Shown here one piece after another: positions 1 to 6,042 of a stretch of DNA of 6,042 bases (position 1 is the first letter of the stretch; each line of letters opens with the position of its first letter). Source of the stretch: a virus. Lineage: Duplodnaviria; Heunggongvirae; Uroviricota; Caudoviricetes. Made by a program: the position numbers and the translations under genes. The stretch lies in the IMG/VR virus record IMGVR_UViG_2698536458_000012; one strand, 5' to 3'. The notes under the pieces were generated by a model that ran no database searches, was not told the DNA's origin, and saw nothing but the letters and a program-made list of their open reading frames with translations.

Positions 1-1
1 G

Positions 2-271
2 GAAGGAGTGTCCGTTAAACTCAGGCTACCTCAGGTTATTCGCTTCTGGGCATGGGCGGATCAACAAATGATAGACGGTAATGCAGATTGTAACGCTCGC
101 GGCGTTACAAAAAGTGCAATAGATCGCATCACTTTTATGTCTGGTTTTGCTGATGCGTTAATTCAGGTTGGATGGCTGGTCGAAAATGACGGAGGGCTTT
201 CTCTACCTAACTTTGAACGTCATAACGGAAAAAGCTCTAAAAAAAACGGGCGGTTACAAACGAGCGAGTAA
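2..271 (+). CDS. 5'-truncated phage replication protein, N-terminal replisome-organizer-like segment (frame 2)
   Basis: Frame is open from the window edge (codons from position 2); the GTG at 8 has no usable RBS, so the gene probably starts upstream of the window. Segment ends ...GWLVENDGGLSLPNFERHNGKSSKK then TAA at 269-271. The protein-like reading continues in frame 1 straight after the A8 run at 239-246 (KKRAVTNERVTKIRELKRKG...), so this looks like the first piece of a frame-broken gene. Family assignment is from memory, not a search. Confidence 0.55.
   Translation, partial: EGVSVKLRLPQVIRFWAWADQQMIDGNADCNARGVTKSAIDRITFMSGFADALIQVGWLVENDGGLSLPNFERHNGKSSKKNGRLQTSE
89..109. repeat. Inverted repeat TGTAACGC-tcgcg-GCGTTACA (8-bp arms)
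   Basis: Perfect 8-bp arms with a 5-nt spacer, read directly from the sequence; shares the GTAACGC/GCGTTAC core with the palindrome at 299-317. Confidence 0.8.
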
Positions 272-298
272 CAAAAATACGCGAACTGAAACGAAAAG

Positions 299-317
299 GT
301 AACGCTGCCAGCGTTAC
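299..317. repeat. Inverted repeat GTAACGCTG-c-CAGCGTTAC (9-bp arms)
   Basis: Perfect 9-bp arms with a 1-nt spacer; another GCGTTAC half-site follows at 334-340, just upstream of the GAGGAA repeat. Confidence 0.8.
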
Positions 318-342
318 ACAAACGGATCAAAAAGCGTTACCA

Positions 343-380
343 GAGGAAGAGGAAGAGGAAGAGGAAGAGGAAGAGGAAGA
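343..380 (+). repeat. (GAGGAA)6 hexanucleotide tandem repeat, encodes Glu12 in frame 1
   Basis: Six perfect GAGGAA units (343-378) plus GA. In frame 1, the only frame open across this region, it encodes EEEEEEEEEEEE between the organizer-like and DnaT-like segments. Its reverse complement explains the poly-Ser tail of the minus-strand ORF 327-839. Confidence 0.95.
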
Positions 381-458
381 TCTAAATACTGATCTCCCCC
401 TCGCCAAAAACGAGCGTCTAAAAAATTCGAGCCGGAGGCTATTGAGCTGCCCGATTGG

Positions 459-728
459 TTGCCGGAAACACTCTGGCATGAGTGGGTCCGGTTCAGACAG
501 GCATTGCGAAAACCGATTCGAACGGAGCAGGGCGCTAACGGGGCGATACGGGAACTGGAAAAATTCCGTCAGCAGGGTTTTACACCTGAGCAGGTGATTC
601 GACACAGCATCGCCAATGAATACCAGGGCCTGTTCGCGCCGAAAGGTGTTCGGCCTGAGACGTTGCTCCGACAGGTTAACACCGTCTCGTTGCCGGACAG
701 TGCGATCCCGCCAGGCTTCAGGGGGTAA
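459..728 (+). CDS. DnaT-like (primosomal protein I C-terminal domain) segment of the phage replication protein (frame 0)
   Basis: The C-terminus ...ELPDW...VNTVSLPDSAIPPGFRG matches the E. coli DnaT C-terminus (...PDW...VNTVSEPDSQIPPGFRG) as I recall it. Frame 0 is open from 393 after a TGA at 390-392, and the only start codon before the conserved PDW motif is the TTG at 459, so the real N-terminus most likely comes from the upstream frames. Stop TAA at 726-728, 6 nt before the DnaC-like start. Confidence 0.7.
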   Translation: MPETLWHEWVRFRQALRKPIRTEQGANGAIRELEKFRQQGFTPEQVIRHSIANEYQGLFAPKGVRPETLLRQVNTVSLPDSAIPPGFRG

Positions 729-734
729 CGGACC

Positions 735-1481
735 ATGAAAAATATTGCGACAGGCGGCGTTCTGGAACGCATCCGCCGACTGACCCCGCCACATGTAACC
801 GCCCCATTCAGAACGGTAGCGGAGTGGCGCGAGTGGCAACTTGCTGAAGGCCAGAAACGTAGCGAGGAGATCAACCGCCTGAATCGCCAGTTGCGGGTGG
901 AAAAAATTCTGAATCGCTCAGGCATCCAGCCGTTGCACCGTAAATGCTCGTTTGCGAATTACCAGGTGCAGAACGACGGCCAGCGATACGCGTTAAGCCA
1001 GGCGAAATCCATCGCCGATGAACTGATGACCGGGTGTACAAATTTTGCGTTCAGCGGAAAACCTGGTACCGGGAAGAATCACTTAGCGGCAGCTATCGGG
1101 AATCGCCTGCTGAAAGACGGTCAGACAGTGATTGTGGTTACCGTGGCTGATGTTATGAGCGCCCTGCACGCCAGCTATGACGACGGGCAGTCAGGCGAAA
1201 AATTTTTGCGGGAGCTGTGCGAAGTGGATCTGCTGGTTCTTGATGAAATTGGCATTCAGCGCGAGACGAAAAACGAGCAGGTGGTGCTGCACCAGATTGT
1301 TGATCGCCGGACAGCGTCGATGCGCAGCGTGGGGATGCTGACAAACCTGAACTATGAGGTGATGAAAACATTGCTCGGCGAGCGGGTGATGGATCGCATG
1401 GTCATGAACGGCGGGCGCTGGGTGAATTTTAACTGGGAGAGCTGGCGTCCGAATGTTAGCCATTCGAGGGTTGTTAAGTAG
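735..1481 (+). CDS. dnaC: DnaC-like replicative helicase loader (AAA+ ATPase), prophage-encoded homolog
   Basis: The 248-aa product aligns along its whole length with E. coli DnaC from memory: MKN... N-terminus, Walker A FSGKPGTGKNHLAAAI, Walker B DLLVLDEIG, and the MLTNLNYEVMKTLLGERVMDRM block (DnaC: MLTNSNMEEMTKLLGERVMDRM). The G-rich run at 721-725 could serve as an RBS. It sits directly after the DnaT-like gene, as in the chromosomal dnaT-dnaC operon. Confidence 0.92.
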   Translation: MKNIATGGVLERIRRLTPPHVTAPFRTVAEWREWQLAEGQKRSEEINRLNRQLRVEKILNRSGIQPLHRKCSFANYQVQNDGQRYALSQAKSIADELMTGCTNFAFSGKPGTGKNHLAAAIGNRLLKDGQTVIVVTVADVMSALHASYDDGQSGEKFLRELCEVDLLVLDEIGIQRETKNEQVVLHQIVDRRTASMRSVGMLTNLNYEVMKTLLGERVMDRMVMNGGRWVNFNWESWRPNVSHSRVVK

Positions 1482-1483
1482 TT

Positions 1484-1489
1484 TCAGGA
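1484..1489 (+). promoter_or_regulatory. Shine-Dalgarno AGGAGG for the CDS starting at 1496
   Basis: AGGAGG lies 6 nt upstream of the ATG at 1496. Confidence 0.6.
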
Positions 1490-1495
1490 GGATTT

Positions 1496-1918
1496 ATGGC
1501 GAAACCTTTTACTCCCGAACAGCGGGAAGAACTGAAGACGCGAATTGTGGAACTCGTGCATCAGGACGGTCGGGTCACGATTCGGCAGTTGTCAGATGAA
1601 ACAGGTATCAGTCGTGCGTCTGTCGGTCGCTTATGCATAGAACTGGTCGCAAGTGGTGATGTATATAATTCTGGCTACGGCTTATTCCCGTCTGAACAGG
1701 CTCGCAAGGACTGGCAAAGCGCCCGCAAAAAACTCTCGAGAGTAAAGGTGAGGAAACCGGTTGTTGTTGATCCGGACCTTATCTGGTCATTACCTGACGG
1801 AGAAATACGCCGCTACGACAGGCGCCTGAATATAATCTGTCGCGAGTGCCGGAAGAGCGAAGCTATGCAGCGTGTACTGGCTTTCTATCAGGGTAATTTT
1901 CAGGAGGCGATACTGTGA
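1496..1918 (+). CDS. Small phage protein with an N-terminal winged-helix/HTH-like region; function unknown
   Basis: 140-aa ORF with a strong RBS. The N-terminus (ELKTRIVELVHQDGRVTIRQLSDETGISRASVGRLCIELVASGDV) has the pattern of DeoR/Lrp/MarR-type HTH regions. Composition matches the flanking replication genes and it is co-oriented with them. Confidence 0.7.
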   Translation: MAKPFTPEQREELKTRIVELVHQDGRVTIRQLSDETGISRASVGRLCIELVASGDVYNSGYGLFPSEQARKDWQSARKKLSRVKVRKPVVVDPDLIWSLPDGEIRRYDRRLNIICRECRKSEAMQRVLAFYQGNFQEAIL

Positions 1919-1963
1919 ATGAAATTAGCTATCAGGCTTCAATTACCGCTGGCATTCGCATCA

Positions 1964-1974
1964 AAGGAGAGGAG
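1964..1974 (+). promoter_or_regulatory. Shine-Dalgarno (AAGGAGAGGAG) for the ATG at 1976
   Basis: Purine-rich AGGAG-containing tract ends 1 nt before the ATG at 1976, so the spacing is tight depending on which GGAG is used. This supports 1976 as the start over the ATG at 1919 that overlaps the upstream stop. Confidence 0.5.
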
Positions 1975-1975
1975 C

Positions 1976-2332
1976 ATGGAAATAAAACCAGAAGATGAGT
2001 TAAGCAATATCGTTTTATTTCCGGTAAAAGAGGATGACCCTCGTAATCAGGTTAATTTTCTTTATGAGCCATCGGAAAGACCATATTGCCATCACGCCTC
2101 TGTACGGGTTGACGAAAAAGAGCGTCAGGTCCGCTGTAAAATTTGCGGTGCAGTTGTGGAGCCATTTGACTGGATGCTCTCTGTGGCGAAAAGAGAAACC
2201 AGACTGGCAGATGATGTAAGGCTATTGCGCCAGGAGGAACAGGAAAGGCGGAGAAATATAGAAAAGCTGATACAGATTGAGCGTAACGCGAAAGCGCGGA
2301 TACGCAGGGCGACAAAATCCAGAACTGAATAA
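1976..2332 (+). CDS. Small phage protein with a putative zinc-ribbon (CHH...CxxC) and a charged C-terminal helix; function unknown (alternative start 1919)
   Basis: The ORF track gives 1919-2332. The in-frame ATG at 1976 has the better RBS, giving 118 aa. Cys/His cluster YCHHASVRVDEKERQVRCKICG, then an Arg/Glu-rich tail (RLLRQEEQERRRNIEKLIQIERNAKARIRR). Stop TAA at 2330-2332. Confidence 0.6.
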   Translation: MEIKPEDELSNIVLFPVKEDDPRNQVNFLYEPSERPYCHHASVRVDEKERQVRCKICGAVVEPFDWMLSVAKRETRLADDVRLLRQEEQERRRNIEKLIQIERNAKARIRRATKSRTE

Positions 2333-2479
2333 TTAAATTTAGCACTGTTAAAAATTTAATCCTTAACCGGAGGGATTTCTGCACCCTCAAATCATCAGGA
2401 GACCACCCGAAAGGGCGGGGAGCAGTCACACATCTGTTTCCGATAGCCCCGTTCTAATGCTACACTCTTTGATATTTTT

Positions 2480-2686
2480 ATGACCCCAATAAACATATTT
2501 ATGACAGTTGCTGATTTCAAACGGCCCAAATTGGAGCTCNNNNNNNNNNNNNNNNNNNNNNNNNNNNNNNNNNNNNNNNNNNNNNNNNNNNNNNNNNNNN
2601 NNNNNNNNNNNNNNNNNNNNNNNNNNNNNNNNNNCGGTGAACTCGATAAAGAGATTCAGGACGAACTGGAGGCCAGGAATGATTGA
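2480..2686 (+). CDS. Small ORF (68 codons if uninterrupted), partly N-masked; possible small regulator upstream of the methyltransferase
   Basis: ATG at 2480; the readable C-terminus GELDKEIQDELEARND is protein-like; TGA at 2684-2686 overlaps an ATG at 2679 that has a GGAGG RBS. The middle is masked (2540-2634) and no RBS is evident, so this is tentative. Confidence 0.25.
   Translation: MTPINIFMTVADFKRPKLELXXXXXXXXXXXXXXXXXXXXXXXXXXXXXXXXGELDKEIQDELEARND
2668..2672 (+). promoter_or_regulatory. Shine-Dalgarno GGAGG for an ATG at 2679 (ORF runs into masked bases)
   Basis: GGAGG lies 6 nt before the ATG at 2679 (MIDKSPSEFSYKD...). That ORF overlaps the stop of the 2480-2686 ORF in an ATGATTGA arrangement, which suggests translational coupling. 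Confidence 0.4.
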
Positions 2687-2862
2687 CAAATCACCAAGTG
2701 AGTTCAGCTACAAAGATNNNNNNNNNNNNNNNNNNNNNNNNNNNNNNNNNNNNNNNNNNNNNNNNNNNNNNNNNNNNNNNNNNNNNNNNNNNNNNNNNNN
2801 NNNNNNNNNNNNNNNNNNNNNNNNNNNNNNNNNNNNNNNNNNNNNNNNNNGGATTTTACATT

Positions 2863-4629
2863 ATGAATGTGCAACATTTTGATTTTTTTACAGATAATGA
2901 GTTTTCTAATCTGGAAAGATATCAAACTTGTAAAGCCATGGCCAAAGGTTATGCGGGCAATTACAAAACCGGGCAGTCAAGGTTGATGCATGCCCGCTCA
3001 TACTGCTTCAGCATCGTAGCTGCATATTGGGATACCCTTGCAAAAAAGCAAAAAAGCAGCATTAAAATGAGGGCAGTACCGCACACTGTTTACATAGAAG
3101 ACATTCCATGTGATGCACGCGAGCTCGCTGAACGAACAGGTGAGCTTATTGCTCAATTTCCGGCGGAGGACGCTGGATATCTGATTGGGTCAATTTATAC
3201 GGTAATGCTGCCATCCGCTTACCGTTCGGAATTGGGGGCTTACTATACCCCCCCACCTTTGGTAGCGCGTCTCTTGGACCTGGCTGAAAAGTCTGGTGTT
3301 GATTTTTCTCATGCATCGGTTATTGATCCTGCGTGTGGTGGCGGTGCATTTTTGGCACCAGTAGCCATTCGAATGTTAAAAAAAGACAAGGGGTCTTCCC
3401 CTGAATGGATGTTGAGGAGAATCAGTCGTCGTTTAAAGGGGATAGAGATCGATCCATTTGCGGCTTGGATGAGTTTGGTATTGCTCGAATCTGTACTAAT
3501 GCCACTATGTGTAAAGGTAAAACGTAGATTGCCTGAAGATACAATTATTGTTGCTGATGCGCTTCAGCAAGATAAATTTTCTGGTTATGATCTTGTGGTA
3601 GGGAATCCGCCTTACGGACGTGTCACTCTCGATATTAAAACGAGAGAAAAATATTCTCGTTCGTTATTTGGTCATGCAAATCTATATGGATTGTTCACCG
3701 ACTTAGCTGTTCGCATGGTTAAAGAGAAAACAGGAGTTATTGCATTTCTTACGCCAACTTCTTTTCTTGGTGGGCAGTATTTCACCGCGCTGCGAACCCT
3801 TTTGACCGAAAAAACTACTCCGTATGCCCTTGATTTCGTCACTGACAGGGATGGGGTCTTTGACGATGTTCTCCAGGAAACAATGTTGACAGCATTCAAG
3901 GCGGGAGAACATAAAGTTCGGGCCCAGGTATCCTCACTTGTCCCTAAGGGGTTGAACAAAGCAAAAATTGAGAAAATAGGTAATGTTGATATAGAAAAAG
4001 GTGGAGCAACGTGGCTTTTGCCACGCGTTAAAGATGATGCCTGTTTTCTTAATGTATTAAAACAGATGTCTACGCGTTTAGCNNNNNNNNNNNNNNNNNN
4101 NNNNNNNNNNNNNNNNNNNNNNNNNNNNNNNNNNNNNNNNNNNNNNNNNNNNNNNNNNNNNNNNNNNNNNNNNNNNNNNNNNNNNNNNNNNNNNNNNNNN
4201 NNNNNNNNNNNNNNNNNNNNNNNNNNNNNNNNNNNNNNNNNNNNNNNNNNNNNNNNNNNNNNNNNNNNNNNNNNNNNNNNNNNNNNNNNNNNNNNNNNNN
4301 NNNNNNNNNNNNNNNNNNNNNNNNNNNNNNNNNNNNNNNNNNNNNNNNNNNNNNNNNNNNNNNNNNNNNNNNNNNNNNNNNNNNNNNNNNNNNNNNNNNN
4401 NNNNNNNNNNNNNNNNNNNNNNNNNNNNNNNNNNNNNNNNNNNNNNNNNNNNNNNNNNNNNNNNNNNNNNNNNNNNNNNNNNNNNNNNNNNNNNNNNNNN
4501 NNNNNNNNNNNNNNNNNNNNNNNNNNNNNNNNNNNNNNNNNNNNNNNNNNNNNNNNNNNNNNNNNNNNNNNNNNNNNNNNNNNNNGCTACTTAATTCGCA
4601 TGTTGTCGATCGGGCGTTCAGGTGTATAA
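2863..4629 (+). CDS. N6-adenine DNA methyltransferase, gamma class (Eco57I/TaqI-like, NPPY); likely the modification subunit of a type II R-M system
   Basis: Motif X GAYYTPPPLVARLLDLA, motif I VIDPACGGGAFL, motif IV DLVVGNPPYG, and a following IAFLTPTSFLGG block, in the gamma-class order. ATG at 2863 is the first start after the mask, but the frame is also open upstream (TTG 2683, GTG 2698) into masked bases, so the true start is uncertain. Bases 4083-4585 are masked; the frame is consistent across the mask and ends at TAA 4627-4629. Confidence 0.8.
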   Translation: MNVQHFDFFTDNEFSNLERYQTCKAMAKGYAGNYKTGQSRLMHARSYCFSIVAAYWDTLAKKQKSSIKMRAVPHTVYIEDIPCDARELAERTGELIAQFPAEDAGYLIGSIYTVMLPSAYRSELGAYYTPPPLVARLLDLAEKSGVDFSHASVIDPACGGGAFLAPVAIRMLKKDKGSSPEWMLRRISRRLKGIEIDPFAAWMSLVLLESVLMPLCVKVKRRLPEDTIIVADALQQDKFSGYDLVVGNPPYGRVTLDIKTREKYSRSLFGHANLYGLFTDLAVRMVKEKTGVIAFLTPTSFLGGQYFTALRTLLTEKTTPYALDFVTDRDGVFDDVLQETMLTAFKAGEHKVRAQVSSLVPKGLNKAKIEKIGNVDIEKGGATWLLPRVKDDACFLNVLKQMSTRLXXXXXXXXXXXXXXXXXXXXXXXXXXXXXXXXXXXXXXXXXXXXXXXXXXXXXXXXXXXXXXXXXXXXXXXXXXXXXXXXXXXXXXXXXXXXXXXXXXXXXXXXXXXXXXXXXXXXXXXXXXXXXXXXXXXXXXXXXXXXXXXXXXXXXXXXXXXXXXXXXXXXXXXXXYLIRMLSIGRSGV

Positions 4630-4776
4630 GCGGAAGTGTTGCTGTTTCGGCCTATGAATTGAATTCAATNNNNNNNNNNNNNNNNNNNNNNNNNNNNNNN
4701 NNNNNNNNNNNNNNNNNNNNNNNNNNNNNNNNNNNNNNNNNNNNNNTATCGCTGGTTTCTATGGAGTGATGATTGC

Positions 4777-5859
4777 ATGAATCTGCCTGTTGTTCCCCCA
4801 TTGAATGTTATCCGGGAAAGATTACAATTAATTTTCCCTGAAGGGACTGAGAATCGTGGATATTTAATTCGGGAAATAGCTGCAAAAACAATTTTTGTCA
4901 TGTTTTATGCTGGTGCGGTTGAGGGGCTGGGGCGATGGATAAGGCCCAGCCAGGTTGTAAGTATGGGAGATTCGCAGGCTGCTCTTACTGATGATGCGTC
5001 CAGAGAAAGCTGGGTAAAGATGACTTTCTCTAAACAAAAGATAAGGCCTGCTGATGCATGGTATGCGGAAAATACGCGTGAGCCAATACGTGATGAAACT
5101 ATAAAAAATGGCCTAATACCTTGCAATGCAATTGTTGAGCGTAAAGGTATACCCACCACATCCTCTCGTCCTCGTTACAGTTTGAATCGCTCTTTTGCAG
5201 CACTCTTTGATGCCGGGCTTGAAGGAGATTCGCTGCTGAGTGCAATAAGTTCCTGGCAAGAAAATCATTTGAACAAAGCCGCTCTTGCTAGGTTGCGTTT
5301 ATTGAAATCAGGGGCAGTGATTGCTGCTGATGCCGTAGTCGTCACTTTCCCAAATGGAGAGAAGAGAACTTTAGCTCCGGGCCCGTCAAGTACAATAGCT
5401 AAGGCCGTCATCGAAGTTTTTGCTCCTAATTTTCTTAAGAATCCAACTGTGCTCTGGTTGTCTGAATCCGGGAATAAAGTTGTTGCTCAGGATGATGTAT
5501 TGGCAAAAGCATTGGGGCTGAATATTGATGCCTCAAAAGCACTTCCAGATATTATTTTGATTGATTTGGGAGAGGACCGAACGGGTTCGGACATGCTTGT
5601 AGTTTTCACTGAAGTAGTTGCGACAGATGGGCCTATAAACAGGGAACGAAAAGTTACTCTCACTCATTTGGCTATTGACGCTGGGTTCAGCGAGAAAAAT
5701 CTTGCATTCCTTACGGCATTTATGGACAGAAGTGCTCTGCCTTTTAAAAAGGCAATACCAGAATTGGCGTGGGGATCTTATGCATGGTTTGCTTCTGAAC
5801 CGGAGCACTTAATTGATCTTCGGGATGGTTATCCGGTAAAGATCAGCCAGAGAAAATGA
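4777..5859 (+). CDS. Putative type II restriction endonuclease, possibly BsuBI/PstI family; partner of the upstream methyltransferase
   Basis: 360-aa ORF co-oriented with and directly downstream of the methyltransferase, sharing its AT-rich composition. GGAG at 4763-4766 could serve as an RBS. The family label comes from recalled similarity to BsuBI/PstI-annotated proteins, not from a search. A possible acidic cluster (PDIILIDLGEDR...VVFTEVVATDG) is present but no canonical PD-(D/E)xK could be confirmed by eye. Confidence 0.5.
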   Translation: MNLPVVPPLNVIRERLQLIFPEGTENRGYLIREIAAKTIFVMFYAGAVEGLGRWIRPSQVVSMGDSQAALTDDASRESWVKMTFSKQKIRPADAWYAENTREPIRDETIKNGLIPCNAIVERKGIPTTSSRPRYSLNRSFAALFDAGLEGDSLLSAISSWQENHLNKAALARLRLLKSGAVIAADAVVVTFPNGEKRTLAPGPSSTIAKAVIEVFAPNFLKNPTVLWLSESGNKVVAQDDVLAKALGLNIDASKALPDIILIDLGEDRTGSDMLVVFTEVVATDGPINRERKVTLTHLAIDAGFSEKNLAFLTAFMDRSALPFKKAIPELAWGSYAWFASEPEHLIDLRDGYPVKISQRK

Positions 5860-6011
5860 CCAAAGTTTGATATCCGCCACGCCCTGAAGGATGGGGGTTT
5901 TACGGTGCACTGGATAAAAAATCGGTTTCATAGATTTGCCCACCGTGGTATACGCCTGCGATAAAAACTTTATTGTCATCAACGGCAAAAGCAATAATTG
6001 TTCTGTGGCGG

Positions 6012-6042
6012 GGTGATGCTGCCAACTTACTGATTTAGTGTA
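6012..6042 (+). mobile_element. IS1: IS1 left terminal inverted repeat and first bases (element continues past the window end)
   Basis: GGTGATGCTGCCAACTTACTGATTTAGTGTA is identical to the canonical IS1 left end as I recall it; insA would read rightward beyond the window. Confidence 0.85.

Follow-up and report, generated by a model that had tools for sequence, protein, structure and literature searches.

The gene at positions 4777 to 5859 of the window (the whole stretch of 6,042 nucleotides that was analysed) very probably specifies the endonuclease component of a Type II (Type IIP-like) restriction-modification (R-M) system, which belongs to the BsuBI/PstI/SdaI family and forms a cassette within a lambdoid prophage. 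Membership of the endonuclease in this family is already known, the gene is an ordinary and previously annotated one, and the importance of the result beyond correct annotation is slight. The open reading frame (ORF), as given by the ORF list and the sequence, begins with an ATG at 4777, ends with a TGA at 5857-5859 and encodes 360 amino acids. The parts of the R-M cassette are as follows.

2851-4780, plus strand: gene for the cognate N6-adenine DNA methyltransferase, assigned with Pfam and PADLOC; its start lies inside the masked run 2718-2850, and parts of it are masked at 4083-4585 and 4670-4746
4777-4780, plus strand: ATGA overlap, read from the sequence, of the methyltransferase stop codon (TGA, 4778-4780) and the endonuclease start codon (ATG, 4777-4779)
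4777-5859, plus strand: gene for the 360-aa restriction endonuclease, BsuBI/PstI family Type II, assigned from the ORF, Pfam, PADLOC and identity with WP_001053102.1
4804-5292, plus strand: N-terminal helix-turn-helix (HTH)/winged-helix domain, residues 10-172, the presumed DNA-recognition module, in which R101, E102 and R105 are family-invariant
5338-5823, plus strand: C-terminal PD-(D/E)XK-fold catalytic domain, residues 188-349

The two domains were delimited with Pfam. PF17728 (BsuBI_PstI_RE_N, HTH) covers residues 10 to 172 (profile positions 2 to 136 of 140; E value, 1.2e-30; 106.6 bits), and PF06616 (BsuBI_PstI_RE) covers residues 188 to 349 (profile positions 2 to 152 of 154; E value, 9.3e-45; 152.2 bits); the gathering cut-off is 27 bits for each family. 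The PADLOC model REase_II matched the endonuclease from end to end (2.8e-128), the only PHROGs family matched was 'restriction endonuclease', and none of the NCBIfam models matched. A preliminary description of this DNA had read the N-terminal third (NVIRERLQ...AVEG, residues 10 to 50) as a recognition or HTH-like module, which agrees with the PF17728 match. It had also considered the size and position of the gene to fit an endonuclease partnered with the upstream methyltransferase, and this was borne out by both Pfam domains and by the methyltransferase described below.

Homologues of the endonuclease are numerous, with more than 3,700 clusters at 90% identity, and 1,004 proteins in a library of 50%-identity representatives match it at E values up to 0.001. 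Among the matches listed from that library, all have both BsuBI/PstI Pfam domains, and of those that bear a source name most are called 'BsuBI/PstI family' or plain 'restriction endonuclease'. The protein is 100% identical to RefSeq WP_001053102.1 (E. coli FDAARGOS_943), named 'BsuBI/PstI family type II restriction endonuclease', and the identical endonuclease carries a BsuBI/PstI family annotation in two E. coli genomes. Judged from these sequence comparisons (Pfam, PADLOC and the homologue clusters), the ORF is real, far beyond what chance would produce.

Structure prediction with AlphaFold from an alignment of 65 sequences gave a model with a pLDDT of 91. An initial run from a shallow alignment of 33 sequences (pLDDT, 56.5; catalytic domain, <50) was discarded. 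When the model was compared with the PDB by Foldseek, there was one significant match, SdaI (2ixs_A; E value, 1e-17; probability, 1.0), and the next match had an E value of 0.18. SdaI (2ixs) was also the sole match in a sequence search of the PDB (1.8e-16) and is thus the only strong match, in both sequence and structure, among solved structures. The fold of the model is SdaI-like: a winged-helix domain, predicted to serve in recognition, comes first and a PD-(D/E)XK catalytic domain second, which is also the two-domain plan of SdaI (PDB 2ixs; Tamulaitiene et al. 2006, cited in PMC2441816 and PMC3045609). The global TM-score between the model and SdaI was 0.40 to 0.45 despite a full-length alignment, and the probable cause of this low value is that the two domains are oriented differently to each other in the model. 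The endonuclease is 28% identical to SdaI. At its N terminus it is longer by approximately 40 residues, and the loop that joins the PD strand to the E strand is also longer than in SdaI. Profile searches in Pfam and structure prediction with Foldseek, a course proposed in the preliminary description, led to the BsuBI/PstI domains and the SdaI fold.

The residues that appear to form the active site lie in the C-terminal domain at the following positions.

5413-5415, plus strand: E213, candidate glutamate of motif I, in the first helix of the core; 62 of 65 family members have it, and it is aligned with a glutamate in SdaI and in the PstI-like enzyme; its catalytic role is putative
5545-5550, plus strand: P257-D258, the 'PD' motif, corresponding to SdaI D233; present in 64 of 65 sequences and invariant in the cross-branch alignment
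5611-5622, plus strand: E279-V-V-A282, motif III; E279 corresponds to SdaI E248 and is present in all 65 sequences, and A282 is at the position of SdaI K251
5647-5652, plus strand: R291-K292, second core helix; R291 corresponds to SdaI R260, is present in all 65 sequences and is invariant across branches

The motif of the endonuclease thus consists of P257-D258, 20 intervening residues and E279-V-V-A282; the motif-III position lacks a lysine. An acidic cluster made up of DIILIDLGEDR (residues 258 to 268) and FTEVVATDG (residues 277 to 285) had been singled out in the preliminary description. This cluster holds the PD aspartate and the motif-III glutamate and, from sequence, is best regarded as the active site; residue conservation places D258, D263 and E279 in the predicted catalytic core, with D263 kept in 59 of 65 relatives. 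Conservation was assessed in three alignments, one of 33 close homologues (62 to 89% identity), a diverse one of 65 sequences (30 to 89% identity) and a cross-branch MAFFT alignment to which the intact PstI/BsuBI-like enzyme of an Stx2a phage (L084, 317 aa) and a fragment of SdaI were added. The residues invariant in the close homologues include P257, D258, E279, V281, A282, D284, G285, P286, R291 and K292. With the PstI-like enzyme and SdaI added, P257, D258, E279, V281, G285 and R291 were still invariant, as were R101, E102 and R105 in the N-terminal domain.

The correspondence with SdaI was obtained from a phmmer alignment and residue counting, in which SdaI D233, E248, K251 and R260 fall on D258, E279, A282 and R291, respectively. 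Lys251 of SdaI belongs to a variant motif, EXXK, and Arg260 to the second conserved helix; both are catalytic, and Arg260 is the more important of the two (Laganeckas et al., PMC3045609). The R.SdaI subfamily has been described as an example of catalytic lysine migration (Orlowski and Bujnicki, PMC2441816). In the 65-sequence alignment, the commonest residues listed at position 282 are A, V, H, S, Y and F, and lysine is not one of them. In the cross-branch alignment, the PstI-like Stx-phage enzyme has T there and keeps the helix arginine, just as the window's endonuclease keeps R291; only SdaI has K. The EXXK lysine is accordingly a feature of SdaI rather than one that defines the family, and because the PstI-like enzyme has T at the K251 position, the lack of a lysine is the family norm and not a defect of this endonuclease. 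With alanine at the position of SdaI K251, the catalytic chemistry proposed here follows the Arg260 data for SdaI by analogy, and R291 would act in the role of that arginine.

The preliminary description had stated that no clean PD-(D/E)xK, HNH or GIY-YIG motif could be pointed to. This is literally true, in that the motif-III lysine is missing and Pfam detected no HNH or GIY-YIG family in the endonuclease. The reason lies in the variant motif known for the family, in which an arginine on a helix replaces the usual lysine. Thus, the 'uncertain catalytic identity' attributed to the protein was justified insofar as the motif is unclean by eye, but the uncertainty itself gives way to a published family variant (PMC2441816, PMC3045609). 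Because the BsuBI/PstI/SdaI family is documented to have a variant active site, a PD-(D/E)xK motif that escapes the eye does not argue for an effector of a new type.

A catalytically dead relic of an endonuclease, standing beside a working and effectively orphan methyltransferase, was considered as an alternative to an active enzyme. Such decay is seen among related prophage genes: the PstI/BsuBI-like endonuclease gene of phage ArgO145 (L083, 2824-3778) is annotated as frameshifted with in-frame stops next to an intact methylase, an instance in which the endonuclease has decayed and the methylase stays behind as an orphan. Erosion is also under way in the neighbourhood of the gene in the window, where parE has been truncated by IS1, and the absence of the motif-III lysine could be counted in the same direction. 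However, that absence is the family norm rather than a lesion, the ORF runs its full length, its product is 100% identical to that encoded in another E. coli genome, and every family-invariant residue (R101, E102, R105, P257, D258, E279, R291, R318, W337 and P342) has been kept. Thus, it seems unlikely that the gene has decayed in the manner of the ArgO145 copy.

Still less probable, to the point of being very unlikely, is a non-nuclease effector coupled to the methyltransferase, such as a regulator that binds DNA or an effector of another type, which the preliminary description had entertained in case the protein was not of the BsuBI/PstI type. The HTH/winged-helix fold of the N-terminal domain also occurs in transcription factors, and by eye the support for such an effector is the missing canonical PD-(D/E)xK, HNH or GIY-YIG string. 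Against this, both BsuBI/PstI endonuclease domains match over their full length, SdaI is the only strong structural neighbour, the RefSeq name is that of the family, and the acidic and arginine catalytic residues (D258, E279 and R291) are invariant. A full-length match to a non-nuclease family had been named beforehand as the kind of result that would speak against an endonuclease; non-nuclease families were not matched in Pfam, NCBIfam, PADLOC or PHROGs.

The partner of the restriction endonuclease, the methyltransferase, is 610 amino acids long in an unmasked relative. It matches the Pfam families Eco57I and N6_Mtase and the PADLOC model MTase_II (8.5e-195), has its NPPY motif at 3604-3615, and differs from WP_000113425.1 at one residue over 406 visible residues. 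The closest solved chain is the TaqI methylase (M.TaqI). The same 4-base overlap with the endonuclease gene is annotated in the related loci L001 and L002, and the ATGA stop/start arrangement suggests that the two genes are probably translationally coupled.

Four runs of the window are masked with N (2540-2634, 2718-2850, 4083-4585 and 4670-4746), and none of them touches the endonuclease ORF. Three of the runs have lengths of 503, 133 and 77 bases, compared with 378, 105 and 81 bases for the homologous stretches of the 99.8%-identical L001; because of these differences, reading frames are not transferable across the masked runs. A 648-aa ORF at 2683-4629 was rejected as an artefact of reading through the N-runs, the true end of the methyltransferase being at 4780.

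The pairing of the two genes was examined in 80 related loci from GTDB species representatives, including Burkholderia, Xanthomonas, Erwinia, Sphingomonas, Acidobacteriota, Syntrophomonas and others, which were found in a search made with the 33-sequence alignment. A methyltransferase homologue was directly upstream on the same strand in all 80. The match to the methyltransferase was near full length in 75 loci, with 42 to 67% identity that dropped along with the identity of the endonuclease; in the remaining loci, it was partial in three and more distant (∼27%) in two. A modification-dependent (Type IV-like) nuclease, in which the winged helix would sense methylated DNA rather than an unmethylated site, was also considered; winged-helix domains reportedly serve as 6mA sensors in certain Type IV/IIM enzymes, DpnI and HhiV4I among them (PMC11037411). 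Such a nuclease is highly improbable here in view of the constant pairing of the endonuclease gene with, and its overlap with, its own N6-adenine methyltransferase gene, since cutting the partner's own methylation would be self-destructive, and of the classical Type II nature of the characterised members PstI, BsuBI, EcoGIII and SdaI.

Proteins in which the two activities may be joined were also encountered. Residues 95 to 349 of the endonuclease match the C-terminal part of two profiles of approximately 840 aa (PADLOC PDLC03359 and PHROG 1639), the N-terminal part of which matches methyltransferases, and the protein P0156 (727 aa) has an endonuclease-like region at residues 458 to 715. Methyltransferase-endonuclease fusions probably exist in the BsuBI/PstI/SdaI family; they have been noted for the SdaI subfamily (Orlowski and Bujnicki, PMC2441816).

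Among known systems, PstI/BsuBI and EcoGIII, which recognise CTGCAG, have the same endonuclease Pfam domains as the Type II system in the window and have homologous methyltransferases as well. The methyltransferase in the window is 25% identical over 363 aa (E value, 7e-27) to the M.BsuBI-like methylase of an Stx phage, and the homology spans motif IV and the C-terminal target-recognition region; the system as a whole is therefore a distant relative of the PstI/BsuBI system. The endonuclease is 24% identical to the PstI-like Stx-phage enzyme in the MAFFT alignment and 27% identical to the Stx-phage enzymes by tblastn. Both proteins are longer in the window's system than in the Stx-phage system (360 versus 317 aa for the endonuclease and 610 versus 489 aa for the methyltransferase). 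EcoGIII, like the present system, is inside a lambdoid E. coli prophage, but the position in the prophage differs, being between the replication genes and parDE/rusA/Q here and beside cI/cro in Stx phages.

The recognition site of SdaI is CCTGCAGG. With 24 to 28% identity to characterised enzymes, which is too low for specificity to be transferred, neither this site nor CTGCAG can be assigned to the endonuclease by homology. CTGCAG was not depleted in the 80 host loci, where the ratio of observed to expected sites was 0.93 and 1.36, values obtained without a control set. In the unmasked sequence of the window CTGCAG does not occur, but the number that chance would give there is estimated at only about one. 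Among 6-base palindromes in the 80 loci (∼880 kb), GGGCCC, CAGCTG and CTCGAG were the most depleted, a ranking that comes without control genomes, from hosts of mixed GC content and from loci among which specificity may vary. Literature searches on the RefSeq accessions and on methylome motifs for this family found no work on this 360-aa branch. It is possible, and is put forward here as a tentative proposal, that the branch recognises a site that is neither CTGCAG nor CCTGCAGG, and hence a specificity uncharacterised for the family, and that it is also a natural PD-(D/E)XK enzyme without the motif-III lysine, relying on Arg291 and possibly on Lys292.

In the mechanism that we propose, the N-terminal winged-helix/HTH domain would recognise the DNA site, and the C-terminal PD-(D/E)XK domain would cleave through the metal-binding residues D258 and E279, probably together with E213. 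R291, on the next helix, would provide the positive charge that usually comes from the motif-III lysine, and the upstream N6-adenine methyltransferase would protect host DNA. We infer the cleavage activity, the roles of individual residues and dimeric action on a palindromic site. EcoGIII (CTGCAG, Stx phage) protects against other lambda-like phages (PMC6602927), and by analogy the likely role of the present system would be defence of the lysogen, and possibly also stabilisation of the prophage. As a prophage-borne system, it may influence how susceptible its carrier strains are to phages, how efficiently they can be transformed and what methylome they have.

The R-M cassette was found in 2 of 5,426 complete E. 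coli genomes, with 99.3 to 99.8% DNA identity. In both genomes it is located in a Rac-like lambdoid prophage, flanked on one side by replication genes (replisome organiser, DnaC-like ydaV and DUF977) and on the other by parDE, DUF968, rusA and Q. The left flank in the window is the same as in these E. coli prophages. The GC content of the unmasked cassette is 42 to 47% versus 52 to 57% for the replication genes, as expected for an acquired moron.

The replication genes of the window (1-2539) are 98.5 to 98.8% identical to those at another prophage site of FDAARGOS_943 and FDAARGOS_944, which is followed by queH, and ∼87 to 90% identical, over most of their length, to the cassette-carrying prophages. 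The window therefore reads as part of a mosaic prophage, with 1-2539 and 2635-6011 of different affinity. This mosaicism of the left part suggests that the cassette is mobile between related lambdoid prophages at the same position.

Two features lie to the right of the endonuclease gene.

5900-6011, minus strand: 3' remnant of a RelE/ParE-family toxin gene (last 36 codons plus stop), assigned from the annotation under the match; outside the R-M system
6012-6042, no strand assigned: IS1 terminal inverted repeat, a 100% match to the annotated IS1 terminal inverted repeat in phage P1 records

The translation of the parE remnant was compared with the intact 103-aa ParE of L001. FDAARGOS_943, the source of WP_001053102.1, has the same cassette and methyltransferase, but its parDE is intact, whereas parE in the window is truncated by IS1. 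Because parDE is intact in the related E. coli prophages, it appears that IS1 disrupted the toxin gene in the window.

Two further observations concern the region to the left of the cassette. A 137-aa ORF at 1919-2332, which lies close upstream of the R-M cassette in each of the three loci, has a strong match to PHROG 1621 (unknown function); its similarity to a TFIIB-like zinc ribbon is weak and falls below the Pfam threshold, and no likeness to a controller (C) protein was found in it. A perfect (GAGGAA)6 repeat at 343-378, which would read as poly-Glu in one plus-strand frame, lies just upstream of an ORF at 459-728 that matches replication-initiator/primosomal PHROG families.
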